This document shows, one piece after another, positions 23,952 through 45,365 of a stretch of DNA of 64,000 nt. Origin of the DNA: an uncultured Nitrospiraceae bacterium (GTDB lineage: Bacteria; Nitrospirota; Thermodesulfovibrionia; Thermodesulfovibrionales; Dissulfurispiraceae); the NCBI GenBank assembly GCA_963727805.1, contig CAVSHF010000005.1, forward strand, positions 896,001 to 960,000. The letters are read 5' to 3'. Numbering within the stretch: the stretch's first letter is position 1; each line of letters starts with the position of its first letter. The position numbers were made by a program, and so were the translations under genes. Under the pieces are notes generated by a model. It did not search any database. It saw only the letters and a list, made by a program, of their open reading frames with translations, and had not been told where the DNA came from.

Positions 23952-24417
23952 GACTCCCCCCCTATAGAGCACATTTATGTCATTGTTTTTTAGAGCATTC
24001 GGATTGTCGTGTTAACGACTCAACCTTTCGCTGGCCGGATATATCTTTCATCCATCGAGGAAATCGCCACTATAGTTGCTGCTTAGTGGGCGGAGGATGT
24101 CATACAGTCTGTCAATCTCATTTGAAAGCGAACGCGTCAAATTGTCCCTTGCACAAATCTGAAATTGTGGATTACAATATCCGCGGGATATGAGTCATTA
24201 ATCTTACGGGCGTGTAACATACTATTAACATGGAAACGTCCCTCTCTGCAGGACGGACAAAGTTAAAAGGTTGGGATGGCGAAAAGCCGGCGATTATACT
24301 CACATGAAGCAGCCACATTGATTTCACTGGATTCTTTCTGTCCGAAGTCGTCACACTTATCGCTTCCTATTGACAAAATCATATTTTTAAAAACTATCAA
24401 CCCGCGAGGAGATAATT

Positions 24418-25023
24418 ATGCCATCGCAGACTCTCACTGTTGAGACTGAAGTAGCCGGTTCACTGGCGCAGGAAGTGGCCAAACGTTCAGGCCAGAACCT
24501 CAATGCCTGTTACCAGTGCCGTCGGTGCGCCGCAGGATGCCCTGTTGGCGACGATACTGGGGTCACACCAGACCGCCTGATCAGAATGGTCGTTTTGGGT
24601 GACAGGGAGGCGGCCCTCAATAACCTTCTTGTCTGGAAATGCGTAGCATGCTATACCTGCGGTACCCGCTGCCCGAACAGCATCCATACGGCCAGGATCA
24701 CCGAAACCCTAAAACAGATGATCAAGGAACAGCACCTGCAACCGATGGTTCCGAAGGTGGCGAACTTCCACAGCGCCTTTCTGGCCTCAACCTCCCACTT
24801 CGGCAGGGTAAACGAGATGGAGTTTATGGGTATCTATGATTTTAAAACTGCCATAAACGAGCTTACAAAAGGTGGGGGAATAAAGGCGTTTATCACTGAC
24901 CTGAAGAACCAGATGCAACTCGGCAAGGCGATGATGAAGCTCAAGAGGTTTCATATCGGCTTAGAAAAGATAAAAGGCCTTGCTGAAGTAAAACGCCTGT
25001 ACAACAAAGCGAAGGGCAAATAG
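24418..25023 (+). CDS. hdrC: Heterodisulfide reductase subunit C-like (copy 1)
   Basis: CYQCRRCAAGCP and WKCVACYTCGTRCP 2x[4Fe-4S] motifs. Confidence 0.9.
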   Translation: MPSQTLTVETEVAGSLAQEVAKRSGQNLNACYQCRRCAAGCPVGDDTGVTPDRLIRMVVLGDREAALNNLLVWKCVACYTCGTRCPNSIHTARITETLKQMIKEQHLQPMVPKVANFHSAFLASTSHFGRVNEMEFMGIYDFKTAINELTKGGGIKAFITDLKNQMQLGKAMMKLKRFHIGLEKIKGLAEVKRLYNKAKGK

Positions 25024-25083
25024 ATGTTGTATTCAAAGACTTTGGGGGCGGCTCCGGCTGCCTTAACTACGAGGTAAAATAAA

Positions 25084-25959
25084 ATGGAAATGGCCTATTA
25101 TCCGGGATGTTCGCTTCATGCCTCCACTGCGCTCTATGATATCCAGTGCAAGGAAGTGCTGGGCAAGCTTGATGTGGATCTCAGAGAGATCAAAGACTGG
25201 AACTGCTGCGGCGCCACTTCTGCGGCAAAGACAAATGACTTTCTGGCGATAGCCCTGCCGGCCCGCAATCTGGGGATTGCCGAGTCAAGCGGTTATGCCG
25301 AGATGATGATTCCCTGCGCCTCCTGTTACAGCCGCACTCTCATCGCGCAGAAGACGCTCGAGAGCGACAAGGACCTGAGGGACAAGATCAACGCCGAGCT
25401 TTCCGAAAAAATCAAGGGGAAGATCAAACTGCTGTCTATCCTCGACCTGCTGGTCAAGAAGTCGAAATCCGGGGAGATTGCGGCAAAGGCGACAAAAAAG
25501 CTTACCGGCCTGAAGCCGGCATGCTATTACGGCTGTCTCCAGACCCGGTACCCCATGGACGTTGAGTTTTCCGACAGCATCGAAAACCCTCAAGGCATGG
25601 AGACGGTATGCAAGGCCTTGGGAGCAGAGGCCCTCGACTGGGGCTATAAAACCGACTGCTGCGGCGCTTCAGCCTCGGTCAATGATACCGACCTGTCTAT
25701 CAAACTCATGTCCAATATCATGAAGGACGCTGTGGGCCGCGGGGCGAACTGCTTCGTCACCACATGCCCTATGTGCCAGTTGAATATGGATGCCTATCAG
25801 GAGAAGGCCGGTGAAAAGTACGGCATCAGTGCAAGGCTGCCTGTCTATTTTATTACCGAGCTGATCGGGGTCTCGATGGGCATCGGGGCCCTCGAGCTGC
25901 AGCTTGACAGGCATTTCATAGAAGCAATAGGACTTTTGAAAGGATTGGAATTGCTATAA
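25084..25959 (+). CDS. hdrB: Heterodisulfide reductase subunit B-like (copy 1)
   Basis: Two CCG domains: YYPGC...NCCGA...PCASC and YYGC...DCCGA...TCPMCQ. Confidence 0.9.
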   Translation: MEMAYYPGCSLHASTALYDIQCKEVLGKLDVDLREIKDWNCCGATSAAKTNDFLAIALPARNLGIAESSGYAEMMIPCASCYSRTLIAQKTLESDKDLRDKINAELSEKIKGKIKLLSILDLLVKKSKSGEIAAKATKKLTGLKPACYYGCLQTRYPMDVEFSDSIENPQGMETVCKALGAEALDWGYKTDCCGASASVNDTDLSIKLMSNIMKDAVGRGANCFVTTCPMCQLNMDAYQEKAGEKYGISARLPVYFITELIGVSMGIGALELQLDRHFIEAIGLLKGLELL

Positions 25960-26062: not shown

Positions 26063-26464
26063 TCAATACCCCTGCCCCGACCTCGACGCCGGCGGTGTGG
26101 TCACCGTTCGGACCACTGGTTGAATCTCGTACTTATAATTGCAGGTTGCCTGTGTGTTCTGATTGTTTGTCCACATCAAGCAATAGATGTCCTCGTGATC
26201 AGGCACATACGTTCCATCATCCGAATTGACGTTGCGTCTCTCAAGGGGAAAAAAGATCTTGTCGCCGGCATGGTAATGAACATTAAAATCGACAGGCACA
26301 GAAGCAAAAAAGGAATAGATGAACTTCTGGCCGCCCTTGACCGATATACATTCTTCATGTATGCCGCCCGGTTTGATCTGAGTCATGCCACTTTCCTTCA
26401 CAGGCGCTACAGCGCATGAAGCAAGGAGGAGCAACGAAAAAGCAAACATCATCATCCTTATCAT
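26063..26464 (-). CDS. Putative lipoprotein, beta-rich (GOLD-like) domain
   Basis: GAGGTG RBS, lipobox LLLASC, PVDFNVHYH...YCLMWTN. Confidence 0.65.
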   Translation of the reverse strand: MIRMMMFAFSLLLLASCAVAPVKESGMTQIKPGGIHEECISVKGGQKFIYSFFASVPVDFNVHYHAGDKIFFPLERRNVNSDDGTYVPDHEDIYCLMWTNNQNTQATCNYKYEIQPVVRTVTTPPASRSGQGY

Positions 26465-27084
26465 CTTTTTCACCTCATTTTTAAAGATATCGCACCCCGG
26501 TTGCTTGACAACGACCGGATGCCTAAACATACTATATCCGGATTGATGTCATCATGCAAACACGCTAACATCTTGCAATCCTTAATATCATATATCATTG
26601 TTTTTTCTTATTACCTGATAAGCTGATATTGACATAAGTTTGCTCGAATACAGAGTTCCACCGGTTCTAAAACAGCCCTGCACAAGGCATTGAGTCTAAT
26701 GCCCCTGTCCGACGACGTCCGCTCCTCGATATCGTGCAAAAGCGAACGTGTCAAATTGCCCCTTGCACAAATCTGAAATTGTGGATTACAATATTCGCGG
26801 TGCATGGTTCATTAATCTTACAGACGTTGATTTTTGGTAAGGCAATGCCCCGCCAGAACAAGTCGCAAACCAACGGGCGTGTAACATACTATTAACATGG
26901 AAACGTCCCTCTCTGCAGGACGGACAAAGTTAAAAGGTTGGGATGGCGAAAAGCCGGCGATTATACTCACATGAAGCAGCCACATTGATTTCACTGGATT
27001 CTTTCTGTCCGAAGTCGTCACACTTATCGCTTCCTATTGACAAAATCATATTTTTAAAAACTATCAACCCGCGAGGAGATAATT

Positions 27085-27690
27085 ATGCCATCGCAGACTC
27101 TCACTGTTGAGACTGAAGTAGCCGGTTCACTGGCGCAGGAAGTGGCCAAACGTTCAGGCCAGAACCTCAATGCCTGTTACCAGTGCCGTCGGTGCGCCGC
27201 AGGATGCCCTGTTGGCGACGATACTGGGGTCACACCAGACCGCCTGATCAGAATGGTCGTTTTGGGTGACAGGGAGGCGGCCCTCAATAACCTTCTTGTC
27301 TGGAAATGCGTAGCATGCTATACCTGCGGTACCCGCTGCCCGAACAGCATCCATACGGCCAGGATCACCGAAACCCTAAAACAGATGATCAAGGAACAGC
27401 ACCTGCAACCGATGGTTCCGAAGGTGGCGAACTTCCACAGCGCCTTTCTGGCCTCAACCTCCCACTTCGGCAGGGTAAACGAGATGGAGTTTATGGGTAT
27501 CTATGATTTTAAAACTGCCATAAACGAGCTTACAAAAGGTGGGGGAATAAAGGCGTTTATCACTGACCTGAAGAACCAGATGCAACTCGGCAAGGCGATG
27601 ATGAAGCTCAAGAGGTTTCATATCGGCTTAGAAAAGATAAAAGGCCTTGCTGAAGTAAAACGCCTGTACAACAAAGCGAAGGGCAAATAG
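27085..27690 (+). CDS. hdrC: Heterodisulfide reductase subunit C-like (copy 2)
   Basis: Protein identical to copy 1. Confidence 0.9.
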   Translation: MPSQTLTVETEVAGSLAQEVAKRSGQNLNACYQCRRCAAGCPVGDDTGVTPDRLIRMVVLGDREAALNNLLVWKCVACYTCGTRCPNSIHTARITETLKQMIKEQHLQPMVPKVANFHSAFLASTSHFGRVNEMEFMGIYDFKTAINELTKGGGIKAFITDLKNQMQLGKAMMKLKRFHIGLEKIKGLAEVKRLYNKAKGK

Positions 27691-27750
27691 ATGTTGTATT
27701 CAAAGACTTTGGGGGCGGCTCCGGCTGCCTTAACTACGAGGTAAAATAAA

Positions 27751-28626
27751 ATGGAAATGGCCTATTATCCGGGATGTTCGCTTCATGCCTCCACTGCGCT
27801 CTATGATATCCAGTGCAAGGAAGTGCTGGGCAAGCTTGATGTGGATCTCAGAGAGATCAAAGACTGGAACTGCTGCGGCGCCACTTCTGCGGCAAAGACA
27901 AATGACTTTCTGGCGATAGCCCTGCCGGCCCGCAATCTGGGGATTGCCGAGTCAAGCGGTTATGCCGAGATGATGATTCCCTGCGCCTCCTGTTACAGCC
28001 GCACTCTCATCGCGCAGAAGACGCTCGAGAGCGACAAGGACCTGAGGGACAAGATCAACGCCGAGCTTTCCGAAAAAATCAAGGGGAAGATCAAACTGCT
28101 GTCTATCCTCGACCTGCTGGTCAAGAAGTCGAAATCCGGGGAGATTGCGGCAAAGGCGACAAAAAAGCTTACCGGCCTGAAGCCGGCATGCTATTACGGC
28201 TGTCTCCAGACCCGGTACCCCATGGACGTTGAGTTTTCCGACAGCATCGAAAACCCTCAAGGCATGGAGACGGTATGCAAGGCCTTGGGAGCAGAGGCCC
28301 TCGACTGGGGCTATAAAACCGACTGCTGCGGCGCTTCAGCCTCGGTCAATGATACCGACCTGTCTATCAAACTCATGTCCAATATCATGAAGGACGCTGT
28401 GGGCCGCGGGGCGAACTGCTTCGTCACCACATGCCCTATGTGCCAGTTGAATATGGATGCCTATCAGGAGAAGGCCGGTGAAAAGTACGGCATCAGTGCA
28501 AGGCTGCCTGTCTATTTTATTACCGAGCTGATCGGGGTCTCGATGGGCATCGGGGCCCTCGAGCTGCAGCTTGACAGGCATTTCATAGAAGCAATAGGAC
28601 TTTTGAAAGGATTGGAACTGCTATGA
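27751..28626 (+). CDS. hdrB: Heterodisulfide reductase subunit B-like (copy 2)
   Basis: Protein identical to copy 1; ATGA overlap with the next gene. Confidence 0.9.
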   Translation: MEMAYYPGCSLHASTALYDIQCKEVLGKLDVDLREIKDWNCCGATSAAKTNDFLAIALPARNLGIAESSGYAEMMIPCASCYSRTLIAQKTLESDKDLRDKINAELSEKIKGKIKLLSILDLLVKKSKSGEIAAKATKKLTGLKPACYYGCLQTRYPMDVEFSDSIENPQGMETVCKALGAEALDWGYKTDCCGASASVNDTDLSIKLMSNIMKDAVGRGANCFVTTCPMCQLNMDAYQEKAGEKYGISARLPVYFITELIGVSMGIGALELQLDRHFIEAIGLLKGLELL

Positions 28627-29501
28627 GCGACTCTACTGCTTCCACTAAAAAAGGATCGGTTCTTATCGTCGGCGGCGGAATTGGAGGCATGCAGGCATCG
28701 CTTGACCTTGCTGACAGTGGGTTCAAGGTGCACATGGTCCAGAAAGATTCTTCCATTGGCGGCGTCATGTCGATGCTTGACAAGACTTTCCCCACAGGTG
28801 ACTGTGCCATGTGCATGATATCTCCCAAGATGGTCGATGTAGGCCGTCACATGAATATAGATATCCACTCCTGTTCTGAGATTGTAGCATTGAAGGGCGA
28901 TGCCGGCGAATTTACCGCCACAATCAGGAAGAAGGCACGCTCAGTGGATAAGACAAAGTGTACGGGCTGCGGCGAGTGCACGCGGAACTGCCCTGTGAGA
29001 AACGTCATACAGATTCCGGATCACGTTCCCCCTCCTCCGCTCAAAGAGGAATGGCAGCAAGTACTCAACGAAACTGTTGCTGCTTATGAGGATGCCCCAA
29101 GAGCGCTTATCTCCATTCTTCAGGACATAAATCATAAGCTAAAGTACCTGCCGCTCCCCATGATCGGCAATCTCGCCCATCGGCTGGGGATCCCAGAGTC
29201 GCACATCCTTTCTGTCGCGACTTTCTACAATGCATTCAGCTTAGTTCCTGTCGGGCGACACATCATCGAGGTCTGTTCAGGAACGGCCTGCCACGTCAAA
29301 GGGTCGAAACGCCTTATTGATCGACTGAGTGAGTCACTGCAAGTTGCTCCCGGGCAGACCACCAAGGATGATCGTTTTACGCTGCGTACTGTCAACTGTA
29401 TCGGCTGCTGCGCCCTCGCACCCGCAATGCGCATGGACGGAGAGGTCTACGGATACGTGAAGATCTCGGAGCTGCCAAAGATACTGAAAGATCATGCATG
29501 A
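28623..29501 (+). CDS. Fusion: HdrA N-terminal FAD/ferredoxin half + NuoE/HydC-like [2Fe-2S] domain
   Basis: VLIVGGGIGG...LDKTFPTGDCAMC.ISPK...KCTGCGECTRNCP (HdrA), then LISILQD...VATFY..F...VCSGTACHVKG...CIGCCALAP (NuoE). Confidence 0.88.
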   Translation: MSDSTASTKKGSVLIVGGGIGGMQASLDLADSGFKVHMVQKDSSIGGVMSMLDKTFPTGDCAMCMISPKMVDVGRHMNIDIHSCSEIVALKGDAGEFTATIRKKARSVDKTKCTGCGECTRNCPVRNVIQIPDHVPPPPLKEEWQQVLNETVAAYEDAPRALISILQDINHKLKYLPLPMIGNLAHRLGIPESHILSVATFYNAFSLVPVGRHIIEVCSGTACHVKGSKRLIDRLSESLQVAPGQTTKDDRFTLRTVNCIGCCALAPAMRMDGEVYGYVKISELPKILKDHA

Positions 29502-31413
29502 GGGGAATCTATCCATGGAAATATTGAAAAATGTTAATGAGCTTGAATCTCTTCGTACCCGACTCATTCAAGCGGAAAACAAGAAAAAAACGCTCGTTAC
29601 TGTCTGTTGCGGATCTGGGTGTCTCTCCAATGGGGCTCTGAAGGTAGCCGCAGCTTTGAAAAAGGGCTTAGCGCAGCCCGGGATGGAAGGATCTGTTGAG
29701 GTCAAGACCACTGGCTGTCATGGTTTTTGCGAGCGTGGCCCTATTACGGTGATTGAGCCCGAGGGCATCCTTTATCAGGGTGTAGGACGTAAACAGTTAG
29801 ATAAAGACGTTGATGAGATAGTGGAGACTCTACAAAAGGGGGGAGAGCCCGTTAAACGGCTGCTCTACAAAGATTTAGAAACTAAAGATGTTATTGCACA
29901 TTTTAAAGATATCCCCTTTTACGCCAAGCAACGCAGGGTGGCTTTACGCAACAACGGGATAATCGACCCTAAGAATATTGAAGACTACCTGGTTCACAAC
30001 GGTTATGCTTCTTTTGCCAAGGCTGTTTCCATGAAGCCTGAAGAAATCATTGCCTTGCTCAAAGACTCGCAACTGCGTGGCCGAGGCGGCGCTGGTTTTC
30101 TTACAGGTCAGAAGTGGGAACTATCACGAAGGTCCGAAGCGTTCCCTAAATACGTGATCTGTAATGGTGATGAGGGTGACCCCGGCGCCTTTATGGACCG
30201 GTCCATAATGGAAGGCGATCCCCATTCTGTGCTTGAGGGCATGCTCATCGCGGCATGGGCCATCGCTGGCGGCCAGGGACCGATCGCCGGATACCTTTAT
30301 GTGCGCGCTGAGTACCCACTAGCAGTTGAAAATTTGACACTTGCTGTGAAGCAGGCAAGGGCCTATGGACTTCTGGGGAAGAACATCTTAGGTTCTGGAT
30401 TCGACTTTGACATAACGATCAACCGCGGCGCTGGAGCATTTGTGTGCGGCGAAGAGACTGCACTTATAGCTTCTATTGAAGGAAAGCCAGGCCTACCACG
30501 ACCCAGGCCGCCTTTCCCCGCCCAGGAGGGGCTCTTTGGCAAGCCTACAAATATTAACAACGTCGAAACCCTTGCCAACGTGCCAATGATCATCGAAAAA
30601 GGCGCTGAATGGTTCAGAAGCATCGGCGTCGAAAAGAATGGCGGCACCAAAGTATTCAGCCTCGTGGGAAAGGTTAACTATACAGGCCTTGTGGAAGTGC
30701 CCATGGGAACAACCATCCGCGAAGTGGTCTTCGGCATAGGGGGCGGCATCCAAGGCGGCAAGAAGTTCAAAGCAGTGCAGACTGGCGGACCCTCTGGCGG
30801 CTGTATCCCAGAGTCGTTGCTGGACCTTCCCCTTACCTATGAAGGACTGATGCAGGCAGGGTCTATCATGGGGTCCGGTGGTATGATCGTGATGGACAAC
30901 GAGACTTGTATGGTTGACGTTGCCCGTTACTTCCTGAAGTTCGTCTGCGAAGAATCATGCGGAAAGTGTATCCCCTGTCGAGAGGGCACAAAACGCATGA
31001 GTGATATCCTGGAGCGCATTTGCGCAGGAGACGGGCAGGAGGGAGATATCGAAACCTTGGAACGCATGGGTAAAGCCATTGCCGCTTCCTCTCTTTGTGG
31101 CCTGGGCCAGACGGCACCTAATCCGACGCTCTCCACGATCCGCTATTTTCGCGATGAGTACGAGGCCCATATTCGGGACAAGAGATGCCCTGCCGGAGTT
31201 TGCAAAGCCTTAATAGATTACCGTATAGACGAAAAAGCCTGCACAGGGTGCGGGGCATGCGCCAGAAACTGCCCGGTCAATGCTATAACTGGTGAAAAGA
31301 AGAAGACGCATGTACTTGATCAGGATAAATGCGTGAAGTGCGGCGCTTGTCGCGAAAGCTGCAAGTTTAATGCAGTTGTCATTGAAAAAGCCCATGAGCA
31401 CGCAGCAGTTTAA
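29494..31413 (+). CDS. NuoF/HydB-like FMN- and NADH-binding subunit
   Basis: N-terminal [2Fe-2S] (CCGSGC...GCHGFC), LRGRGGAGF, CNGDEGDPGAFMDR, GAGAFVCGEETAL, GGPSGG, ESCGKCIPCREG, C-terminal 2x[4Fe-4S]; start may be 29515. Confidence 0.92.
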   Translation: MHEGNLSMEILKNVNELESLRTRLIQAENKKKTLVTVCCGSGCLSNGALKVAAALKKGLAQPGMEGSVEVKTTGCHGFCERGPITVIEPEGILYQGVGRKQLDKDVDEIVETLQKGGEPVKRLLYKDLETKDVIAHFKDIPFYAKQRRVALRNNGIIDPKNIEDYLVHNGYASFAKAVSMKPEEIIALLKDSQLRGRGGAGFLTGQKWELSRRSEAFPKYVICNGDEGDPGAFMDRSIMEGDPHSVLEGMLIAAWAIAGGQGPIAGYLYVRAEYPLAVENLTLAVKQARAYGLLGKNILGSGFDFDITINRGAGAFVCGEETALIASIEGKPGLPRPRPPFPAQEGLFGKPTNINNVETLANVPMIIEKGAEWFRSIGVEKNGGTKVFSLVGKVNYTGLVEVPMGTTIREVVFGIGGGIQGGKKFKAVQTGGPSGGCIPESLLDLPLTYEGLMQAGSIMGSGGMIVMDNETCMVDVARYFLKFVCEESCGKCIPCREGTKRMSDILERICAGDGQEGDIETLERMGKAIAASSLCGLGQTAPNPTLSTIRYFRDEYEAHIRDKRCPAGVCKALIDYRIDEKACTGCGACARNCPVNAITGEKKKTHVLDQDKCVKCGACRESCKFNAVVIEKAHEHAAV

Positions 31414-31422
31414 GGAGATATC

Positions 31423-34400
31423 ATGAACGAGGCATCTAACATTTATTTCATCAACGACCAAGAAGTCAACGTCGAGCCGGGACAAACCGTTTTAGAGGCC
31501 GCCCGAAAGCTGGGCATTTGGATCCCTACACTATGCCATCGCAACCCTCTTGAGCCCGAAGGCGCCTGTCGGCTTTGCATGGTCGAAGTGGAGGCCATGG
31601 GCCGGCGCAGGCTGGTTACCAGCTGCGGATATCCCGTATCACCTGGCATAAAAGTCTATACCGAAACCCCATTAGTCAAAGAGAGCCGTCAGGTTGTGGC
31701 TGAACTCCTATTGGCCCGCTGCAGCGAGAATAAGGAGATACGGGAACTTTGCGAAAAGCTGGGGGTAACTGATACTCCTTTCTCTAAAGAAAAACATGAT
31801 TGTATGCTATGTGGTCTCTGCGTTCAAATGTGCCATCAGCGTATGCAGGTTGGCGCAATAGGCTTCATCGGCCGAGGCTACGATCGTAAAGTGGGCACTC
31901 CTTACGACCGCAATTCTGACGTTTGTATCACCTGCGGGGCATGCGAGTTCATCTGTCCCACCGGGGCCATCACAGCCAAAATGAACAGCGGCCGCAACCC
32001 TATCCCTCACAAAAAGACGTTCGAGCAGGGCCTCAGTGCATGCGGCAACATTGATATCCCGTTCCCCTCGGCAGTGCCGCTCCTTCCAAGCATCGACCGG
32101 ACTAATTGCATCCATTTCAATATCGGGTCGGATGCCTGCAAGATCTGCAAACAAGTATGTCCTCCGGGCGCCATTACTTATGAACAGGAAGATATAGAGG
32201 AAGAACTCGAAGTCGGAGCAGTCATCATGGCGCCGGGTCTGGAGCGTTATAATCCCCAGGTCAGGGGCGAACTTGGTTACGGCCGGTGGCCCAATGTTGT
32301 CACATCGCTTCAGTTCGAACGCATCCTGTCTGCTTCGGGTCCGTTTCAGGGGGTCGTACAACGGCCCGCCGACGGCAAGCATCCTGTCAAGGTCGCCTGG
32401 ATCCAGTGCGTAGGCTCTCGTGATGCTCATAATGCCAACCCCTGGTGCTCGTCAGTTTGTTGTATGTATGCCACCAAGCAGGCGGTGATAGCGCGCGAGC
32501 ATGATAAGCACATCCAGCCCACTATTTTCTACATGGATATGCGGGCTTTTGGCAAGGATTTCGATAAATACGTAGAGCGCGCCAAAAGTGAGTATGGTGT
32601 GCGGTATATGCGGGCAATGGTCTCTGCTGTCCGCGAAGCCCCCGGTACCAGTGACCTCGTGCTTCGCTATGCGCTCGAAGATGGTTCACTTATCAATGAA
32701 GAGTTCGATATGGTAGTTCTCTCAGTTGGCCTAGAACCGCAGAAAGACGCGGCCAAACTTGCGGAGATTTGCGGCGTCGATATGACCAATTATCTATTTC
32801 CACAGACCTCTACCTTCGAGCCTGTCGACGCGAGCCGTCCGGGCGTCTTTGTAACCGGCACTTATCAGGGGCCAAAAGACATTCCCGAGACAGTTATGCA
32901 GGGCAGTGCAGTAGCAGGGCAGGCGATGGCCCTTCTTGGCGAAGCGCGTTGGACGGAAACAATAAAAAAAGAGACGCCGCCTGAAAGGGACATTTCTGCA
33001 GAAGAGCCGCGGCTCGGCGTCTTCGTCTGCTCATGCGGCATAAATATCGCCGGCACCGTCGACGTTGCAAAGGTAGTCGAGGAGATGAGAGATATCCCCG
33101 GCGTGGTCCATGTAGAAAACACACTTTACACCTGTTCCCAGGACAGCCAGGAGAAGATAAAGCAGCTGATAAAAGAAAAGGGAATCAACCGCGTGCTCGT
33201 TGCTTCATGCACGCCTCGTACCCATACCCCACTATTCCAGGAGACTCTTCAGGAAGCCGGCCTCAATAAGTACTTGTTCGAGCTTGCAGATATCCGCGAG
33301 CAGTGCTCATGGTGCCATATGGGCCAGCGTGAAGAGGCGACAAAAAAGGCGATACGTCTCGTAAAAATGTCGATCGCCAAGGTAAAGCTCCTCCAGCCGA
33401 TTAAAACCGAGACAGTGGGCGTAACCCCGGCGAGTCTCGTCATTGGTGGCGGTGTAGCCGGAATGACCACTGCTCTTTCACTTGCTGAGCAAGGGTTCGA
33501 CGTCCATATCATAGAGCGCGAAAAGGAACTTGGAGGCCTTGCCAGGAATCTTTATTTCACTCAGGACGGCAGTGACGTTCAGGGCTACCTGAAGTCGCAG
33601 ATCGGTGCAGTCATGGCCCATCCTCGCATAACGGTGCATACTGGGGTCGAGGTCCAGAATACCGAAGGATTCATCGGCAACTTCGAGACGGTACTTACTG
33701 ATGGGAAAACCATCTTACACGGCACTATAGTTCTGACGACAGGCGGCATCGAGTACCAGCCGACGGAATACCTCTATAACGAGAGCGACAGGGTAGTCAC
33801 CCAGCGAGAACTTGAAAAGAAGATCTTTGAAGGACTCCAGCCCGGCTCAGGCGAACGGTATGTAATGATCCAGTGCGTCGGCTCACGTGAAGAGCCTAAC
33901 CAGTACTGCTCCCGCATCTGCTGCCAGGACGCCGTGAAGAACGCCATCGAGATCAAAGCACGGAACCCAAAGGCCCAAGTGGCCATCCTTTACCGGGATA
34001 TGAGGACCTACGGCCTTCGCGAGGATTACTATACAAAGGCCCGCGACCTCGGAGTCCTCTTTATCAGATATGATGTAGATAAAAAACCCCAGGTCGAAAA
34101 GATAGGTGAAAAACTCCGTATCAAGACCTGGGATTACATGCTGGATAAGGAACTCGTAATGGATGCCGAGTGGGTGGTTCTCTCAACAGGTCTGAGGCCG
34201 CACCCAACGACAGAAAAGATTGGTTCGCTTTACAAAGTCACCCGCAATCCTGACGGCTATTTCCTTGAGGCCCATGTAAAACTCCGTCCAGTGGACTTCC
34301 CGAGTGAAGGCATCTTTGTAGCCGGTCTTGCACACGCTCCCAAGAATCTGGATGAGACAATCAGCCAGGCACTTGCCGCAGCTGGCCGGGCGGGCGTCGT

Positions 34401-34680
34401 CCTTTCTCATGAGAGGCTGGCGATATCCGGTCTCATCGCCAAACAAAAGCGCGAGCTCTGCATGTCGTGTCTGAGTTGCCTCAGGATATGCCCCTTCGGG
34501 TCACCCTTTATCGACGCAGACGGCAAAGTCAGCCATAACGAGATCAAATGCCACGGATGCGGTCTCTGCGCAGGTATTTGCCCGGCAAAGGCCTTCCAGA
34601 TCAACGGCTTCAGTGATGAGCAGATGCTCGCCATGATCGACGTGGCTGCTGATCTTGAAGAAGGCGGGGTAGTCAATTAG
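31423..34680 (+). CDS. Fusion: NuoG/HoxU-like N-terminal FeS domains + remainder of HdrA + second HdrA module
   Basis: IPTLC...GACRLC...SC and CMLCGLC...CITCGAC; then IPFPSAVP, CVGSR...CSSVCCMY, GPKDIP; then GVFVCSCG.NI, IREQCSW.H, LVIGGGVAG, YCSRICC, AHVKLRPVD and a C-terminal ferredoxin. Confidence 0.9.
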   Translation: MNEASNIYFINDQEVNVEPGQTVLEAARKLGIWIPTLCHRNPLEPEGACRLCMVEVEAMGRRRLVTSCGYPVSPGIKVYTETPLVKESRQVVAELLLARCSENKEIRELCEKLGVTDTPFSKEKHDCMLCGLCVQMCHQRMQVGAIGFIGRGYDRKVGTPYDRNSDVCITCGACEFICPTGAITAKMNSGRNPIPHKKTFEQGLSACGNIDIPFPSAVPLLPSIDRTNCIHFNIGSDACKICKQVCPPGAITYEQEDIEEELEVGAVIMAPGLERYNPQVRGELGYGRWPNVVTSLQFERILSASGPFQGVVQRPADGKHPVKVAWIQCVGSRDAHNANPWCSSVCCMYATKQAVIAREHDKHIQPTIFYMDMRAFGKDFDKYVERAKSEYGVRYMRAMVSAVREAPGTSDLVLRYALEDGSLINEEFDMVVLSVGLEPQKDAAKLAEICGVDMTNYLFPQTSTFEPVDASRPGVFVTGTYQGPKDIPETVMQGSAVAGQAMALLGEARWTETIKKETPPERDISAEEPRLGVFVCSCGINIAGTVDVAKVVEEMRDIPGVVHVENTLYTCSQDSQEKIKQLIKEKGINRVLVASCTPRTHTPLFQETLQEAGLNKYLFELADIREQCSWCHMGQREEATKKAIRLVKMSIAKVKLLQPIKTETVGVTPASLVIGGGVAGMTTALSLAEQGFDVHIIEREKELGGLARNLYFTQDGSDVQGYLKSQIGAVMAHPRITVHTGVEVQNTEGFIGNFETVLTDGKTILHGTIVLTTGGIEYQPTEYLYNESDRVVTQRELEKKIFEGLQPGSGERYVMIQCVGSREEPNQYCSRICCQDAVKNAIEIKARNPKAQVAILYRDMRTYGLREDYYTKARDLGVLFIRYDVDKKPQVEKIGEKLRIKTWDYMLDKELVMDAEWVVLSTGLRPHPTTEKIGSLYKVTRNPDGYFLEAHVKLRPVDFPSEGIFVAGLAHAPKNLDETISQALAAAGRAGVVLSHERLAISGLIAKQKRELCMSCLSCLRICPFGSPFIDADGKVSHNEIKCHGCGLCAGICPAKAFQINGFSDEQMLAMIDVAADLEEGGVVN

Positions 34681-34743: not shown

Positions 34744-35262
34744 ATGGCGACAGTTGCTGAAGCGCCTGTAAAGGAAGCGGTTTCGACAATCGAGAAACCC
34801 CACGAAATAAGCGAGGGTTGGCAGCCGAACATTATCGCCTTGGCTTGCCATTACTGCGCGTTTGCCGCGGCAGACCTGGCCGGGGTCATGCGCCTTACTT
34901 ACCCAACGGGCGTCAAGATCATCCGCATGCCCTGTACGGGAAAGCTCGATCACATCTATGTGCTTAGGGCCTTCGAAAAGGGCGTTGACGGCGTCTTCGT
35001 CGCCGGTTGACTCGAGGGGCAATGTCATTACCTGGAAGGTAATACCAATGCAGCAAGAAGGGTAAAGCATATAAAAAAGCTTTTACAACACGTAGGAATC
35101 GATCCCGCACGACTCGAAATGTTCAATCTCTCTGCGGCGATGGGGCCACGGTGGGCTGAAATATGCATCGATTTCACCGAGCGTGTCAAGAAGCTCGGCC
35201 CCTCTCCCGTCAGGATTGCAAAAGAAAAACAGGCCAGAAACAAAAGGAGTGACAACCAATGA
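34744..35262 (+). CDS. mvhD: MvhD/FlpD-type [2Fe-2S] subunit, predicted selenoprotein (UGA at 35008-35010)
   Basis: ACHYCAFAAADLAG, RMPCTGK, DGVFVAG-[TGA]-LEGQCHYLEGN; the frame stays open to TGA 35260-35262, which overlaps the metV ATG. Confidence 0.9.
35011..35050 (+). promoter_or_regulatory. Bacterial SECIS-like hairpin
   Basis: ATTACC-TGGAA-GGTAAT stem-loop (35027-35043) with a G-containing apical loop 22 nt after the UGA. Confidence 0.7.
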
Positions 35263-35972
35263 TCGTCGGCGAACAGAAGCCAATTGAAGAAATCTGGAAT
35301 ATGGTCAAGGGTCTTAAAAAAGTCTTGGTGTACGGCTGCAACACCTGTGTTGCCGTCTGCCATGCCGGCGGCGCCAAGGAGGCTGAGATCATCGCCTCTC
35401 TTCTGCGCATCAGGGCCGCGGAAGAAGGGATCGAAATGGCGGTTGAACACGGGGCATGCGAACGACAATGTGAACCCGAATTCTTTATGCCCTCTATAGA
35501 AAAATTCAAGGCGCAGGATGTAGTACTCTCGACCGCATGCGGCGTTGGGGTAAACCTCATGTCCGCTGAAATCGGCGATATCGCCGTCTATCCTGCTCTT
35601 AATACCGAATTCTACGGCGCCGTGCCCAAGGCTGGGCTCTTTGTCGAGATGTGCGGGGGCTGCGGCAACTGTATCCTCCACCTTACCGGCGGTATCTGCC
35701 CCATCGTCCGTTGCTCGAAGTCGCTTTTAAACGGTCCCTGTGGCGGCACCAACAACGGCAAGTGCGAGATCAGTAATGAGGTAGACTGCGCCTGGTACCT
35801 GATAGTTGAACGTATGAAGAAACTCGGCACTCTTGATAAACTTCTGGAGATACAGCCCCCGAAGAACTGGGCAACAGCAACTGCCGGCGGACCCCGCAGA
35901 ATCGTAATCGAGCATATCGCTGAATTGGAAGAAAAGGAAGAAAATAAGGCTGCGGGGGAGGTCAAGAAATGA
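35259..35972 (+). CDS. metV: Methylene-THF reductase small subunit MetV (MTHFR C-terminal domain protein)
   Basis: GCNTC...GG..E, RQCE, ACGVG, C.GCGNC.L..TGGICP..RCSKSLLNGPCGG...GKCE...CAW. Confidence 0.9.
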   Translation: MIVGEQKPIEEIWNMVKGLKKVLVYGCNTCVAVCHAGGAKEAEIIASLLRIRAAEEGIEMAVEHGACERQCEPEFFMPSIEKFKAQDVVLSTACGVGVNLMSAEIGDIAVYPALNTEFYGAVPKAGLFVEMCGGCGNCILHLTGGICPIVRCSKSLLNGPCGGTNNGKCEISNEVDCAWYLIVERMKKLGTLDKLLEIQPPKNWATATAGGPRRIVIEHIAELEEKEENKAAGEVKK

Positions 35973-36949
35973 AATCTGGAAGCAATCTCGAACGGGTCAT
36001 CCTGAGCGGAAATCCGGCTGTTACAGCGGAACTTGGACCTCCCATGAGTGCATCACCCGATGAGATAGTCCATAAGGCTCATACGTTGAAGGGTTTTTGC
36101 GATGCGGCAAACATCACCGATTGTCAGACAGCAGTCGTGCGCATATCCAGCATAGCTGCAGCCTTCATCGCCTTTCGTGAAGGGCTCGAGCCGGTCATGC
36201 AGATGACCTGCCGCGACAGAAACCGCATTGCTATACAGGCCGATCTGTTAGGAGCAGCAGCACTTGGACTGAAAAACTGCCTCTGCATCGCAGGCGACCA
36301 CCAGAAATTCGGCGCTGCAGGAAAATTGAAGGGCCATCCCGGAGCAAAAAACGTCTATGACGTCGACACCACACAGCTCGTTGGCATCCTCAAGAAGATG
36401 CGCGACGAAAGTCTTCAGGAAGGCGGCGACAAGCTCGAAGTGCCCCCGAAGTTCTTCATCGGCGCGACGTGGACACCCATGGGCGACCCGATGGATTTCA
36501 GACCTTATAACCTGAAGAAAAAGGTCGATGCGGGAGCTGAATTTATCCAGACCCAAGGCATCTATGACATGGAGCTCTTCAAGTCTCAGTGCGAAAAAGC
36601 GCGGAACCTCGGCGTCCTTGAAAATACTGCTCTATTGGCCGGCATCATCGTGCCGAAGAGCGCCATGATGCTCAAATATATGGACGCGAGCGTTTCAGGA
36701 GTGACTGTACCTAAGCCACTGATCGACCGCATGGCAAAAGCGAAAGCGGCTGCCGGAGATGACAAGAAAAAGGCCAAGCTGCTCCAGGAGGAAGAGGGAA
36801 TAAAGATCACCATCGAGCTGATCCATCAGGCTCTTGAAATACCCGGCGTCAAGGGCGTCCATATTCAGGCAATCGATTGGGAATCAGCCATCGAGAGGAT
36901 TGTCAAGGATGCCGGTCTTTATCCGAGACCGACTTTCCCGGCAGAATAG
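35969..36949 (+). CDS. metF: Methylenetetrahydrofolate reductase
   Basis: VTAELGPP, ANITD, QMTCRDRNRIAIQ.DLLGA, GDH, KKVDAGAEFIQTQ, GVHI. Confidence 0.93.
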   Translation: MKSGSNLERVILSGNPAVTAELGPPMSASPDEIVHKAHTLKGFCDAANITDCQTAVVRISSIAAAFIAFREGLEPVMQMTCRDRNRIAIQADLLGAAALGLKNCLCIAGDHQKFGAAGKLKGHPGAKNVYDVDTTQLVGILKKMRDESLQEGGDKLEVPPKFFIGATWTPMGDPMDFRPYNLKKKVDAGAEFIQTQGIYDMELFKSQCEKARNLGVLENTALLAGIIVPKSAMMLKYMDASVSGVTVPKPLIDRMAKAKAAAGDDKKKAKLLQEEEGIKITIELIHQALEIPGVKGVHIQAIDWESAIERIVKDAGLYPRPTFPAE

Positions 36950-40860: not shown

Positions 40861-40895
40861 TCCGTTGTTGATACACTTAATAAATGGAGGTGCGT

Positions 40896-41429
40896 ATGGA
40901 TCTGAACTATCTCGAGATCATTGCAGCTTTCTTCGGACTCACATGGCTACTGATCTTCCCTGAACAGGTGACCGGCGGCTTGATCACGAAGAATAGCAAA
41001 ACGGTAGGATCCTCTCTAATCGGGCAGCCCTTTGATGATCCAACATATTTCTGGGGAAGACGATCAGCGACATCGCCCTTTCCATATCATTCGGCCTCTT
41101 CGTCTGGCACAAATCTGGCCGAGACGAACCCCGACCTTGTGAAAAATGCACGGGGACGGATAGACGCCTTGAAAGCCGCTGACCTGCAGGCAGGGAGACA
41201 GGTACCAGTGGATCTTGCGATTGCATCTGGAAGTGGTCTCAATCCTCACATTAGCCCTGCTTCCGCCATATATCAGATAACTAGAGAGGCAAAAGCACGC
41301 GGGATGGATGAAGCAAGGGTGGGCACACTCGCCGCTCAATATGTGGAAGACCGTCAAGTCGGAATTCTCGGTGAGCCCAGAGTAAATGTACTCAGGTTGA
41401 ATCTAACCTTGGATGACCTACAAAAATAA
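40896..41429 (+). pseudogene. kdpC: Chimeric kdpC remnant (kdpFAB deleted)
   Basis: GSSLIGQPF...YFWGR.SA, SSGTNL, VPVDLAIASGSGLNPHISP, GEPRVNVLRLNL; the normal KdpC N-terminus is replaced and no kdpA or kdpB is present in the window. Confidence 0.75.
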
Positions 41430-41442
41430 AGGAGGAGACTAT

Positions 41443-41838
41443 ATGAAAATGAAGATAACCAGAATCATTCTGATGCTAGTGCTTTTGGCATCTGTTTGTG
41501 CTCCATTGACCGTTTCTGCTGTTTCCTATCCGCCCGCTCCGCTCTATCATCATCCGCAAAAAGCTGAAACAATTTTGACATCTGGTGCCATCGTCTATTT
41601 GTTTCACAGCGGCACGGATGAGATTAATAGTGCTATTCATGCCAATGACATCCTCACTGTATATAGAATCAACACTTTATGCGAAGTCAGGGAGGTTGGG
41701 AAAATCAGAGTAATCTCCCATATCGGAGAAACATACCTTAAATGCGAGGTAATGGAGGGTGAGATCACGCCTAATGATATTGCTAAGAAAGGAACTGTCG
41801 CACTCCTTGTAATTTCAGCTGGCACATGCGACCATTAA
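41443..41838 (+). CDS. Secreted hypothetical protein
   Basis: AGGAGGAG RBS, ATG 41443, signal peptide ending VSA. Confidence 0.65.
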   Translation: MKMKITRIILMLVLLASVCAPLTVSAVSYPPAPLYHHPQKAETILTSGAIVYLFHSGTDEINSAIHANDILTVYRINTLCEVREVGKIRVISHIGETYLKCEVMEGEITPNDIAKKGTVALLVISAGTCDH

Positions 41839-41897
41839 TCGGCAACTTTACTTATGATATCAACCACCAGATAGAATGAGACAGAGCTATTTAACTG

Positions 41898-44579
41898 ATG
41901 GAAGATCAACGACCTGATCCTGAGTTGCTACTCGATCAAATGCGCATGGATGCTGAACGCAGCCGCGAGGGACAGCTGAAGATATTCTTCGGAGCTGCAC
42001 CGGGCGTTGGCAAGACCTATGCCATGCTAGAAGCTGCTCACCAAAAGATTTCTGAAGACGTCAACGTTGTGGTAGGACTCGTCGAGACACATGGACGCAA
42101 AGAGACTGAGGCATTGCTTGAAAGATTGGAAATACTGCCTCTCAGAAGTGTCGAATACCGCGGTACCATCCTGAAGGAATTCGATATTGATGCGGCCCTT
42201 ACCCGTAAGCCCTCAATCATCCTTGTCGATGAACTTGCCCACTCAAATGCCGAAGGGTCACGTCATAAGAAACGCTGGCAGGACATATACGAACTCCTGG
42301 GGGCCGGCATTACGGTCTATACGACACTGAATGTACAACATCTGGAAAGTCTCAATGACGTAGTTGCCCAGATCACCAGCATCAACGTTCGTGAAACAGT
42401 GCCTGATTTTCTGCTCGACCGAGCCGACGAGATAGAGCTTATCGACCTACCGCCTAACGATCTGCTGCAAAGGCTGGCCGAAGGAAAGGTATATGTGGCC
42501 GAACTCGCCGTGCAGGCACGCAGAAATTTCTTCAGGAAGGGCAACCTCCTTGCCCTGCGCGAGCTTGCACTGCGCCGCACGGCGGAACAGGTTGATGTCC
42601 AGATGCAGGACTACCGGCGGATTAAGGGCGTAAAAGATGTCTGGCCGGCGGCTGAGCGCATTCTTGTATGCGTTGGTCCGAGCCCTTTTGCTGTCCGCCT
42701 GATTCGCGCAGCCAAGCGAATGGCCGCGGGGCTTCGCGCCGACTGGATTGCGGTCAATGTAGAAGCACCCGGAAAGATACAGCCGTCGGAGAAAGACATC
42801 AAAGGACTTACCGAAAACATGCGCCTTGCCGAAAGCCTCGGCGCCGAAACTGTCGTCCTTTCGGGTCACAAGGCAAGCGAGGAGATCTTGAATTATGCTC
42901 GAAACCGCAATGTCACCAAGATTATCGTAGGGAAACCGACCCATCCCCGTTGGAAGGACAAACTGTTTGGCTCCATGCTCGACGAGATCGTACGCGGAAG
43001 TGGGGACATCGATGTCAATGTCATATCAGGAGACATCACGGCCCCCTCTCGGATATCCCCGCCTAAAACCGCCCCCAGCAAAACCCCAGCAAAAGAATGG
43101 ATCACGAGCATCTTCGGCGTTGCGCTCTGCACGGTCATAGCAATCCTGATGTTACCCTACTTCACTTTGGTCGACATTGCAATGGTCTATATACTTGGGG
43201 TTGTAGTGGTTGCAATCCGCACAGGCAACGCCCCTTCCCTTCTAGCCTCTCTTTTGAGCGTAGCTGCTTTCGATTTCTTTTTCGTTCCGCCCTACTATAC
43301 TTTCGCGGTGAATGATGTGAAATATTTCGTAACATTTATCGTGATGTTCATTGTTGCATTCGTGACCAGCAGGCTCACCCTGCGTGTGCGTGAACAGGCG
43401 GAATCAGCACGGCGAAGGGAGAGAAGCACTGCCGCACTGTATCGCCTGAGCAGGGAGCTCACACGAGAACGGGAAATAGAGCGTCTGAGCACCGTCTCAA
43501 TCAAACATATAAGCGAAGTCTTCTCAAGCGAGGCGGTTGTGCTCGTCCCGGATCAATGGGATAGACTGACATGTGCAGTAAGATGCACAGGAACTTTTAT
43601 CGTCGATGACAAGGAGATGAGCGTTGCCCAGTGGGCGTTTGATCATAGTCAAAAGGCTGGCGCCGGTACCGATACACTGTCGGGTGCCAAGGCCTTTTAC
43701 ATCCCCCTCATTTCCGCCTCAAAGACTGTCGGGGTAATCGGCGTTATTCCCGGCCCTTCCGTTAGCTTCTACGACAGCGAACAGGTCCATGCCCTTGAAA
43801 GTTTTACGACTCAGACGGCAATTGCCATTGAGAGAGCCATTCTTGCCGAAGAGGCGCAGCAGGCCATACTGAGGGCTGAGACGGAGATGCTTCGCAACAC
43901 GCTGTTGAGTTCGGTCTCTCATGACCTGCGCACGCCTTTGGCTGCGATTACAGGGGCAGCGTCCACAATTCTGGAAAACGATTCTACGCTGAACCAGTCA
44001 GATAGGCATGAGCTGACACTTACGATTTACGAAGAAGCGGAGCACCTAAATCAGATCATTCGCAATGTGCTTGATATGACTCGCCTCGAATCGGGCGCAA
44101 TAAAGGTCAAAAAAGAGTGGCAATCCATCGAGGAGATTGTGGGGGCAGTGTTGAACCGTCTGGCCGATAAACTTAAAGATCGCCCTATCTCGATCAGGCT
44201 TCAGAAGGATTTACCCCTTGTACCTTTCGATCCACTGCTCCTTGAACAGGTCCTTATGAACCTGCTGGTCAATACCATAAAATATACACAGCCTGAATCC
44301 GAGATTGATATCTCGGCGGTGGTCAAAGGGCAAGAAGTTTTGGTAGAATTGGCGGATAGAGGCCCTGGAATACCTTCCGAAGACGCAGATAGAATATTCG
44401 AGAAATTTGTACGAGGTCCCTCTACCGGCGGCATAGGCCTGGGCCTTACAATTTGCCGGGCGATTGTTGCTGCCCACGGTGGACGTATCTGGGCCGAAAA
44501 CAGGCCGGGGGGCGGAGCAGTATTCCGTTTTACACTCCCCATAGTGGAGCAGCCGCCCATGGTCGAAACCGATGCATAA
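41898..44579 (+). CDS. kdpD: Sensor histidine kinase KdpD
   Basis: LKIFFGAAPGVGKTY, VDELAH, KRWQD, Usp domain, 4 TM, GAF, SHDLRTPL, GLGL. Confidence 0.96.
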   Translation: MEDQRPDPELLLDQMRMDAERSREGQLKIFFGAAPGVGKTYAMLEAAHQKISEDVNVVVGLVETHGRKETEALLERLEILPLRSVEYRGTILKEFDIDAALTRKPSIILVDELAHSNAEGSRHKKRWQDIYELLGAGITVYTTLNVQHLESLNDVVAQITSINVRETVPDFLLDRADEIELIDLPPNDLLQRLAEGKVYVAELAVQARRNFFRKGNLLALRELALRRTAEQVDVQMQDYRRIKGVKDVWPAAERILVCVGPSPFAVRLIRAAKRMAAGLRADWIAVNVEAPGKIQPSEKDIKGLTENMRLAESLGAETVVLSGHKASEEILNYARNRNVTKIIVGKPTHPRWKDKLFGSMLDEIVRGSGDIDVNVISGDITAPSRISPPKTAPSKTPAKEWITSIFGVALCTVIAILMLPYFTLVDIAMVYILGVVVVAIRTGNAPSLLASLLSVAAFDFFFVPPYYTFAVNDVKYFVTFIVMFIVAFVTSRLTLRVREQAESARRRERSTAALYRLSRELTREREIERLSTVSIKHISEVFSSEAVVLVPDQWDRLTCAVRCTGTFIVDDKEMSVAQWAFDHSQKAGAGTDTLSGAKAFYIPLISASKTVGVIGVIPGPSVSFYDSEQVHALESFTTQTAIAIERAILAEEAQQAILRAETEMLRNTLLSSVSHDLRTPLAAITGAASTILENDSTLNQSDRHELTLTIYEEAEHLNQIIRNVLDMTRLESGAIKVKKEWQSIEEIVGAVLNRLADKLKDRPISIRLQKDLPLVPFDPLLLEQVLMNLLVNTIKYTQPESEIDISAVVKGQEVLVELADRGPGIPSEDADRIFEKFVRGPSTGGIGLGLTICRAIVAAHGGRIWAENRPGGGAVFRFTLPIVEQPPMVETDA

Positions 44580-44645
44580 GTAATTCCACGCTTCCTCCCT
44601 TTAAATAAATGGGATTGGAGGAGGAGTGAAGCAGGGCAATATTTT

Positions 44646-45365
44646 ATGACACATGACAATAGACTCATTCTCCTGATTGAAGATGAACCGCAGATGCGGC
44701 GTTTCCTGCGTGTTACGCTGCAAAGCAACGGTTATGGCCTGATCGAGACGACCACGGGACAGGATGGACTCGCCCAAGCGGCAACACGCAACCCTGATGT
44801 GGTGCTTCTCGATCTGGGGCTGCCGGATTGCGACGGGCTCGAAGTACTCTCAGAAATAAGAGAATGGTCGCAGACGCCTGTGATTATCCTTTCGGCGCGG
44901 GGCCAGGAGCAGGATAAGATCAAGGCGCTTGATGCGGGCGCAGACGATTATCTGACCAAGCCCTTCGGCGCAGGAGAGTTACTAGCAAGGATCCGCGTAG
45001 CACTGCGCCATATCAATAAACAGCAAATCGAGCAGACTGAACCGGTTTTTGTTATTGATACGTTGCGTGTCGATCTATCAAAGAGACAGGTCTTTATAAA
45101 AGATACCGAGGTCCACCTGACTCCGATCGAATACAGGCTGCTAACATATTTGATCAAAAATGCGGGCAAGGTCGTCACCCACAATCAGTTGCTAAAGGAG
45201 GTATGGGGGCCTGCATATGCTGGTCAGACCCATTACGTACGCGTCTATATGGGCATGCTCAGGCACAAGCTTGAAGAGGACCCTTCGCGCCCCCATTTTT
45301 TCATTAACGAGCCAGGAGTCGGCTACCGATTGCGTTTCGAGGATCTGGCTGAACACGATTCCTGA
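44646..45365 (+). CDS. kdpE: Response regulator KdpE
   Basis: LLDLGLPD, ALDAGADDYLTKPF, HLTPIEY, LR.KLE.DP, EPGVGYR. Confidence 0.94.
   Translation: MTHDNRLILLIEDEPQMRRFLRVTLQSNGYGLIETTTGQDGLAQAATRNPDVVLLDLGLPDCDGLEVLSEIREWSQTPVIILSARGQEQDKIKALDAGADDYLTKPFGAGELLARIRVALRHINKQQIEQTEPVFVIDTLRVDLSKRQVFIKDTEVHLTPIEYRLLTYLIKNAGKVVTHNQLLKEVWGPAYAGQTHYVRVYMGMLRHKLEEDPSRPHFFINEPGVGYRLRFEDLAEHDS

Follow-up and report, generated by a model that had tools for sequence, protein, structure and literature searches.

The HdrCBA-MvhD-MetVF methylene-tetrahydrofolate (methylene-THF) reductases of Moorella thermoacetica and Sporomusa ovata (PMC9430772) contain a tandem HdrA in one polypeptide, which in Moorella is 1,487 residues long and bears a GltD insert. 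How reductases of this kind are coupled is a standing question: the papers mention a second partner of unknown identity, and NADH coupling assays that failed. NAD(P)H modules also sit in the inserted ferredoxin of HdrL from Desulfobacterium autotrophicum (PMC2702500) and, as an NfnB insert, of HdrA9-11 from ANME-1 archaea (PMC9012536). In class II benzoyl-CoA reductase, Bam[(BC)2DEFGHI]2 or 'Bam-Bfu' (bioRxiv 10.64898/2026.04.10.717634; PMC9304861), a tandem HdrA (BamE) is combined with a separate Bfu module, BamGHI. Here we describe a related locus in a 64,000-nt stretch of an uncultured Nitrospiraceae genome (contig CAVSHF010000005.1; hereafter the window, to which all gene coordinates refer). 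Sequence comparison indicates with near certainty that hdrA is here divided over two genes, its halves fused to the outer (C and A) subunits of a Bfu module.

The hdrA gene is divided over two genes

Three open reading frames (ORFs) at 28623-29501 (292 aa, chain 1), 29494-31413 (639 aa) and 31423-34680 (1,085 aa, chain 3) encode the following parts.

28623..28997, + strand: chain 1 residues 1-125, N-terminal half of HdrA module 1, aligned without gaps to 5ODC_A 146-258; flavin adenine dinucleotide (FAD) Rossmann motif, C61/C64 and first ferredoxin motif C113/116/119/123
29040..29501, + strand: chain 1 residues 140-292, NuoE/HydC/BfuC domain (PF01257; NF005722 at cut-off); [2Fe-2S] ligands C218/223/259/263
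29494..31413, + strand: free-standing BfuB/HydB-type flavin mononucleotide (FMN)/NAD(H) subunit with B1-B5 ligands; best PDB matches 7T2R_B, 7Q4V_B and 8A6T_B
31423..31986, + strand: chain 3 residues 1-188, BfuA/NuoG-type head (PF13510) with one [2Fe-2S], 2x[4Fe-4S] and no A3 (His-Cys) motif; best head-only PDB match 9MQX_A
32008..32982, + strand: chain 3 residues 196-520, remainder of HdrA module 1 (5ODC_A 260-512); C229/239/242/246 form the second ferredoxin motif
33001..34680, + strand: chain 3 residues 527-1085, second HdrA module with an N-terminal-type FeS domain, an FAD domain without inserted ferredoxin and a C-terminal 2x[4Fe-4S] domain; K839 is the Lys equivalent

Residues 13-125 of chain 1 match residues 146-258 of methanogen HdrA (5ODC_A; E 9e-39), and the match stops at the Cys-Pro of the first cysteine motif; the NuoE/HydC alignment then covers residues 148-289. 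Chain 3 is NuoG/HydA-like from residue 10 to 188 and returns to HdrA at residue 196, residues 196-454 matching 5ODC_A 260-512. Because the two matches end and resume at 258 and 260, the halves tile into one HdrA with a one-residue gap, as had been claimed in a preliminary description of this DNA. NCBIfam model NF040770 is apportioned in the same way (139-256 in chain 1, 254-563 in chain 3), and the genome's own intact tandem HdrA (C3:2177288) is matched in order by chain 1 (55% identity) and then chain 3 (49%). A second HdrA unit follows in chain 3, where residues 527-757 correspond to 5ODC 2-233 and residues 933-1072 to 504-646.

A fold search returned methanogen HdrA, with no Bam chain among the rows shown. 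The single-chain predicted models had mean pLDDT values (predicted local distance difference test) of 82.5 for chain 1 and 80.8 for chain 3, and predicted template modelling scores of 0.46 and 0.75, respectively. Residues 142-250 of chain 3 were mostly below a pLDDT of 60; this carries no evidential weight because 23 of the 42 aligned rows are intact HdrA proteins forced onto the BfuA head.

The split is conserved in a compact family

An exact 1,745-bp repeat terminates at the start of the first gene, which is the kind of place where an assembly artefact or a broken gene might be suspected. Both junctions are nevertheless bridged by contigs of other public runs: junction 1 by X2 (28605-30458) and X7 (27979-30080), and junction 2 by X2 (30966-33014), each with scattered substitutions and 0 gaps. 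No contig in the other public runs covers the entire stretch; run X1, possibly the source sample, was left out of this independent support. Moreover, in five of the genus's seven other genomes chain 1 is matched from end to end (another, G006, has no close match to either the split or a GltD-continued form), and each of the 120 best listed chain-1 matches covers at least 78% of the fusion, at identities down to 48%. Contigs, genus genomes and homologue coverage together refute misassembly, the danger raised in the preliminary description, and gene breakage alike, leaving such explanations a negligible probability. The ORF positions and alignments agree with the bridging contigs that HdrA is split over two chains around an inserted module.

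Chain 3 behaves similarly, 117 of its 120 best junction matches having a full head plus HdrA and the other 3 being cut N-terminally. The matches come from sources whose names include WOR-3, TA06, Planctomycetota, Chloroflexota, Deltaproteobacteria and Thermoplasmata; of the named records, those nearest to the window are metagenome-assembled genomes of Dissulfurispiraceae/Nitrospirota, and no cultured carrier is among the named matches listed. Only 8 representatives at 50% clustering match the whole fusion, so the family is compact; 4 of them (418-436 aa) leave room for an HdrA N-terminal domain in front. Within the phylum sample, 2 of 301 genomes (own included, both of this genus) match the chain-3 junction at the scan's threshold of E 1e-60.

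We also compared related loci, taking the best 80 of 449 matches in a species-genome scan, so that counts are skewed toward close relatives. A script scored these as 23 split, 48 plain, 7 HdrL and 2 truncated, the last beginning a GltD-type insert; L015, scored as plain, is split with a damaged start, which corrects the totals to 24 split (L019 and L020 being near-identical) and 47 plain. The preliminary description had proposed a search of genomes for the same fusion pair, and it does recur: the BfuA::HdrA gene is visible in 19 of the 24 split loci, 4 others are cut off by the end of a contig, and in L024 no such gene lies within 9 kb.

Some relatives depart from this pattern. An HdrA N-terminal FeS domain precedes the split half in L022:222-1652, P0023, P0027, P0041 and P0045, as in a canonical-type HdrA broken at the same point. 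L013:12542-14967 has CBS, PHP and HATPase genes inside the split, between the B gene and the A::HdrA gene, and L007, L018 and L023 are similar. Just upstream of their split copies, L018, L019 and L023 also carry an intact tandem hdrA-mvhD, accompanied by Flx-like genes that were recognized by eye.

The insert is a Bfu module

The preliminary description took the insert for a NuoE-NuoF-NuoG module. Its central subunit, however, has its best solved relatives among bifurcating HydB/BfuB subunits (E 5e-236 to 7T2R_B), with an FMN/NAD(H) site and B5, B1, B3 and B4 motifs at residues 38-79, 226-236, 489-535 and 583-623. The B2 site, defined as four Cys/Thr and one His (PMC9304861), is likewise present, C472, C510, H559, C565 and C570 aligning to C438, C476, H525, C531 and C536. 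The four cysteines of the BfuC C1 [2Fe-2S] cluster are invariant in 89 of 89 aligned rows. In the BfuA head all 12 cysteines (one [2Fe-2S] and two [4Fe-4S] sets) are kept in 20 of 20 fusions and the A3 (His-Cys) motif occurs in none of the 20, a head resembling Bam- and Wor-type BfuA. By its motifs, the insert is a HydABC/Bfu-type module with every predicted bifurcation ligand. We rejected the complex I N-module (NuoEFG) on the presence of B2-B5 ligands, the missing A3 motif, the below-cut-off scores of TIGR01959 and TIGR01973, and the lack of nuo membrane genes in the operon.

The proposal that NADH oxidation is covalently tied to HdrA also fails, the NADH-binding subunit being a separate gene with only the C and A subunits fused. 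The free NAD(H) subunit would instead be held by its two fused partners. Elsewhere in the genome (G000 C3:440844-446179), a NuoE-like domain fused to a response-regulator-like N terminus stands ahead of BfuB and an Fdh-like gene (read by eye).

Two chains would rebuild one flavin domain and one dicluster

The FAD Rossmann motif, C61/C64 and four of the ferredoxin cysteines lie in chain 1; the other four are in chain 3, together with E299 and K352, which align to E356 and K409 of 5ODC in module 1. None of these residues varies in the alignments. In a 2x[4Fe-4S] domain, each cluster generally draws its ligands from the two motifs together. The BfuA head has its own 8 cysteines, so neither HdrA ferredoxin motif has a partner in its own chain. 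All six HdrA cysteines of chain 1 (C61, C64 and C113/116/119/123) are invariant in 89 of 89 aligned rows, as are the four of the second ferredoxin motif in chain 3 in 20 of 20. This distribution of motifs agrees with the earlier claim that one FAD domain and one 2x[4Fe-4S] domain must come from two polypeptides, and we consider it highly probable that chains 1 and 3 would reassemble both.

A non-canonical pairing can be envisaged, in which chain 3 pairs the last BfuA cysteine motif with the second HdrA motif and the chain-1 motif is swapped or idle. The last BfuA motif does align to the first ferredoxin motif of HdrA (8RVU alignment), perhaps the original crossover point, and the proline after the last ferredoxin cysteine of chain 1, present in 89 of 120 matches, is replaced in 31 (the residue being P, L or V in 120 of 120). 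All four motifs are nonetheless fully conserved, and the first BfuA motif would lose its normal partner. Since the FAD Rossmann motif occurs in chain 1 only, the two chains must meet in any case. This makes the non-canonical pairing very improbable.

C64 aligns to Cys197 of 5ODC, which ligates the N-terminal cluster of the partner module (PMC9012536); the matching domain here is chain-3 residues 527-660. From their motif, C61/C64 may be equated with the C59-C62 pair of BamE, which lies on its low-potential path (bioRxiv 10.64898/2026.04.10.717634). The bifurcation lysine, whose meaning is set out in PMC9430772, is present in module 1 of 120 of 120 chain-3 homologues and in both modules of 111 of 120; in module 2 it corresponds to K839, with E798 assigned by motif only.

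The split gene lies in a methylene-THF reductase operon

Together, hdrC, hdrB, hdrA, mvhD, metV and metF form a Moorella-type methylene-THF reductase gene set in one cluster, a setting that the preliminary description overlooked. The neighbours of the split hdrA are as follows.

24206..25950, + strand: exact 1,745-bp duplicate of hdrC-hdrB (other copy 26873-28617); a decayed hdrA start terminates this first copy
27085..27690, + strand: hdrC (2x[4Fe-4S]), second copy, operon head; TIGR03290/NF041890 below cut-off; identical to 24418-25023
27751..28626, + strand: hdrB, two CCG domains (PF02754; TIGR03288 below cut-off); its stop overlaps the split hdrA start
34744..35262, + strand: mvhD adaptor (PF02662), in-frame TGA at 35008-35010
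35259..35972, + strand: metV (PF12225)
35969..36949, + strand: metF, methylene-THF reductase (PF02219)

The mvhD reading frame continues beyond the TGA. Many related loci are broken at the same site, and others are open there; selenocysteine is presumably encoded at 35008-35010. A SECIS-like hairpin after this TGA was not significant (z -0.78). The hdrC-hdrB duplication is dispensable for the finding of a split HdrA: its joint is present in contigs of runs X1 and X2, L001, L003 and L005 are single-copy, and between the copies lies an ORF for a 155-aa lipoprotein-like protein (26063-26530, minus strand) with no Pfam match. In RNA run X15, short contigs lie on hdrC/hdrB, on the C-part of hdrA and on metF, none listed across a junction; such contigs are no proof of transcription.

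The genome carries ACS, Fhs and DsrA, and Apr/Qmo/Sat-like genes were read by eye; the host is a sulfate-reducer-type bacterium. Downstream of its intact tandem HdrA (G000 C3:2177288-2183705), which contains an in-frame TGA, come mvhD and Flx-like genes; at C3:1751656-1753776 there is a second mvhD-like-metV-metF set, which has no hdr genes beside it. Further along the window (40884-45365), a kdpC-like remnant precedes kdpD/kdpE-like two-component genes (read by eye).

The insert acts like an exchangeable cassette

The same operon slot holds a plain, a GltD-inserted (HdrL) or a split HdrA. Among the 80 loci, metVF lies downstream in 8 of the 24 split and 38 of the 47 plain ones, and in all 7 HdrL loci; in L015 a [NiFe]-hydrogenase follows mvhD instead. 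The closest backbones to that of the window are HdrL forms (81-83% identity). A congener, G004, encodes a chain 83% identical up to residue 125, at which point it passes into a GltD-type domain. Against the HdrL form L033, identity is 81% over chain-1 residues 7-125 and 82% from chain-3 residue 239 onward. The GltD-type Pfam domain PF14691 is present in L033 and L087 and absent from the window's proteins.

We built a quick, unrooted backbone tree from HdrA sequence downstream of the junction, using the 59 of 79 rows in which the C-part is complete and omitting L015 and L024; the tree has several long branches. The clade of the window was nested among Nitrospirota HdrL forms (Shimodaira-Hasegawa-like approximate likelihood ratio test, 100), L006 fell among plain forms and the remaining split rows lay far off, requiring five state changes. 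A single clade of the 15 split rows was rejected on this quick tree, with its long branches, by the approximately unbiased test (P = 0.00016). In a careful BfuB tree the group of the window was joined with L006, L009 and L010 (97/99), the congeners being divided differently from the backbone. L003 likewise has 89-90% backbone identity and 65-69% in the C and B subunits. With HdrL present in a congener and a single clade of split backbones rejected by the trees, the behaviour of the insert is that of an exchangeable cassette.

The preliminary description had a nuoEFG cassette spliced into hdrA. Insertion as a cassette stands; fresh splicing is the less likely course, the HdrL congener, the identities and the trees favouring exchange. 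Most likely in this genus, the GltD insert of an HdrL form was replaced by recombination, rather than a module being spliced afresh into a plain hdrA. The simplest reading is that a ready-made split cassette took its place through crossovers at the two cysteine motifs, the direction being suggested by parsimony on an unrooted tree.

Two unrelated NAD(P)H modules, GltD and Bfu, sit in the same domain in this operon type. In the split loci L012 (3705-6791), L014 (1236-4400) and L017 (4058-7390), the C-terminal ferredoxin of BfuB is replaced by a GltD-like domain (1,028-1,110 aa in total); both modules are therefore in one insert.

Proposed wiring of the complex

We estimate a probability of roughly 55% that the three genes encode a tandem HdrA with a Bfu-clamped first module, likely within one methylene-THF reductase complex, in which Bfu would be the low-potential branch. 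The wiring itself, with NAD(H) at the low-, methylene-THF at the mid- and HdrCB at the high-potential end, is an evenly balanced proposal. BfuB would be clamped between chains 1 and 3. The methylene/methyl-THF couple (-200 mV) would enter at mid potential via MetVF-MvhD, and the module-1 FAD would split the electron pairs, one branch running to HdrCB and a partner of high potential (a disulfide, for instance, or a quinone-linked carrier), and the other through the rebuilt ferredoxin, BfuA and BfuB to NAD+, possibly to ferredoxin too. Methyl-THF oxidation would yield NADH in acetate oxidation, and the reverse direction would serve CO2 fixation; both are plausible because the genome has ACS, Fhs and DsrA.

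In the solved complexes of methanogen Hdr and of BamE, low-potential electrons leave by the inserted ferredoxin, and the entry is formed by MvhD together with the C-terminal ferredoxin. The mean of the NAD (-320 mV) and menaquinone (-74 mV) potentials is -197 mV, against -200 mV for methylene/methyl-THF. Kremp 2022 suggests a similar confurcation of electrons from NADH and quinol for Sporomusa.

Several points weigh against this wiring. If Bfu tightly couples NAD and ferredoxin (about -400 mV), the reaction with menaquinone would be about 7 kJ/mol uphill, and a partner near +16 mV would be needed; the high-potential partner is not encoded in the operon. Gene order suggests the placement of MetVF at MvhD, and Kremp 2022 reports that MetVF binds the Hdr-MvhD set, with the binding position not shown. 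The usual Moorella model has NADH as the mid-potential donor, and NADH was not oxidized in the Sporomusa H2:methylene-THF assay (Kremp 2022). Glu/Lys appear to be kept at both FAD sites, so either could bifurcate. Finally, 16 of the 24 split loci have no visible metVF in the available DNA (many are cut by contig ends), and L024 lacks the third gene within 9 kb.

The same complex might instead run as in the Moorella textbook scheme, with Bfu as the input: NADH, with or without reduced ferredoxin, would feed HdrA, whose FAD would split electrons between methylene-THF (high) and a low-potential acceptor reached by another route. The Moorella complex, where an NAD(P)H module sits in the same domain, is usually described by this model; Bfu is the input module in benzoyl-CoA reductase, and there are two FAD sites with Glu/Lys. 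Electrons exit rather than enter at the inserted ferredoxin in the solved complexes considered here, however, and the quoted Moorella preparation neither reduced methylene-THF with NADH nor used ferredoxin as acceptor, which leaves this direction unlikely.

Simpler still, HdrA could be wire and scaffold only, passing NADH electrons from BfuB through the rebuilt ferredoxin and the flavins to MetVF without bifurcation, with HdrBC as a side outlet. Electrons would run downhill from NADH to methylene-THF, 68% of the BamGHI clusters were reduced by NADH alone, one of the two BamE flavins is structural, and non-bifurcating HdrA complexes exist. Conservation of the bifurcation Glu/Lys and of the C61/C64 pair speaks against a mere wire, as does the retention of hdrCB in the operon, even duplicated here, and we regard it as improbable.

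An extension of the preferred wiring, with Bfu as the low-potential branch, is more tentative. The enzyme might be a methylene-THF reductase with two bifurcating centres in series, Bfu being hard-wired to the low-potential exit of HdrA in a mirror image of benzoyl-CoA reductase and the inserted ferredoxin serving as a socket for GltD and Bfu cassettes swapped between its cysteine motifs. If so, Moorella-type enzymes too would have NAD(P)H at low and methylene-THF at mid potential, and the long-sought missing substrate would be, in place of a low-potential acceptor, a carrier of high potential at HdrBC.

Comparison with known systems

The split HdrA layout is real, conserved and built from known parts; its proposed wiring is new. 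We found no description of it in the literature searched, which did not take in paywalled work, notably the 2021 HdrA review, or figure supplements; the preliminary description's remark that the architecture was not recognized as characterized is so far unchallenged. A flavin domain and an iron-sulfur dicluster are likely shared by two polypeptides, and the layout likely joins two energy-coupling machines in one enzyme, in a widespread family that databases label merely 'NuoE' or 'HdrA'. The plain, GltD and Bfu forms at one operon site fix where the pyridine-nucleotide module is wired. The finding suggests a high-potential partner as the missing component of the coupling assays.

Methanogen MvhAGD-HdrABC (PDB 5ODC, 8RVU and 7BKB) shares the HdrA fold and ligands with the window, but its HdrA is a single module in a single chain, whose inserted domain is bound by soluble ferredoxin or polyferredoxin. 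Desulfotignum clusters have nuoEFG beside hdrA as separate genes. Among the BfuABC family Types 1-4 (PMC9304861), as here, the BfuBC core has all predicted clusters and BfuA can have A1, A2 and A4 only; the BfuA described here is partner-fused like Type 1 and A3-less like Type 2, with BfuC fused as well. The accessible part of PMC9304861 includes no Hdr- or Met-fused type, and 'Hdr' is absent from the one supplement searched.

Bam-Bfu likewise combines tandem HdrA, a selenocysteine-containing MvhD (BamF), an HdrBC-like unit and an A3-less BfuABC in one complex with two bifurcating modules. There, BamGHI is separate and docks at BamF and the C-terminal ferredoxin, the input, and the inserted ferredoxin feeds BamBC. 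Here, in contrast, Bfu is fused through its C and A subunits at the inserted ferredoxin, the exit, and MetVF takes the place of BamBC; no tungsten BamB/BamC genes are among the ORFs of the operon, the part of the genome searched for bamB.

HdrL and HdrA9-11 resemble the split HdrA in having the NAD(P)H module in the inserted ferredoxin and in being followed by mvhD, but HdrL is one polypeptide with a GltD/NfnB-like insert. The Moorella and Sporomusa enzymes share with the window the six-gene order, a tandem HdrA whose second module lacks the inserted ferredoxin, and a pyridine-nucleotide module in the ferredoxin of the first; Glu/Lys in both FAD domains are shared with the Moorella enzyme. They differ in that HdrA here consists of two chains rather than one tandem polypeptide, and in that a Bfu module of three subunits, rather than GltD, forms the insert, the break lying directly after the first cysteine motif, about 30 residues ahead of the GltD insertion point.

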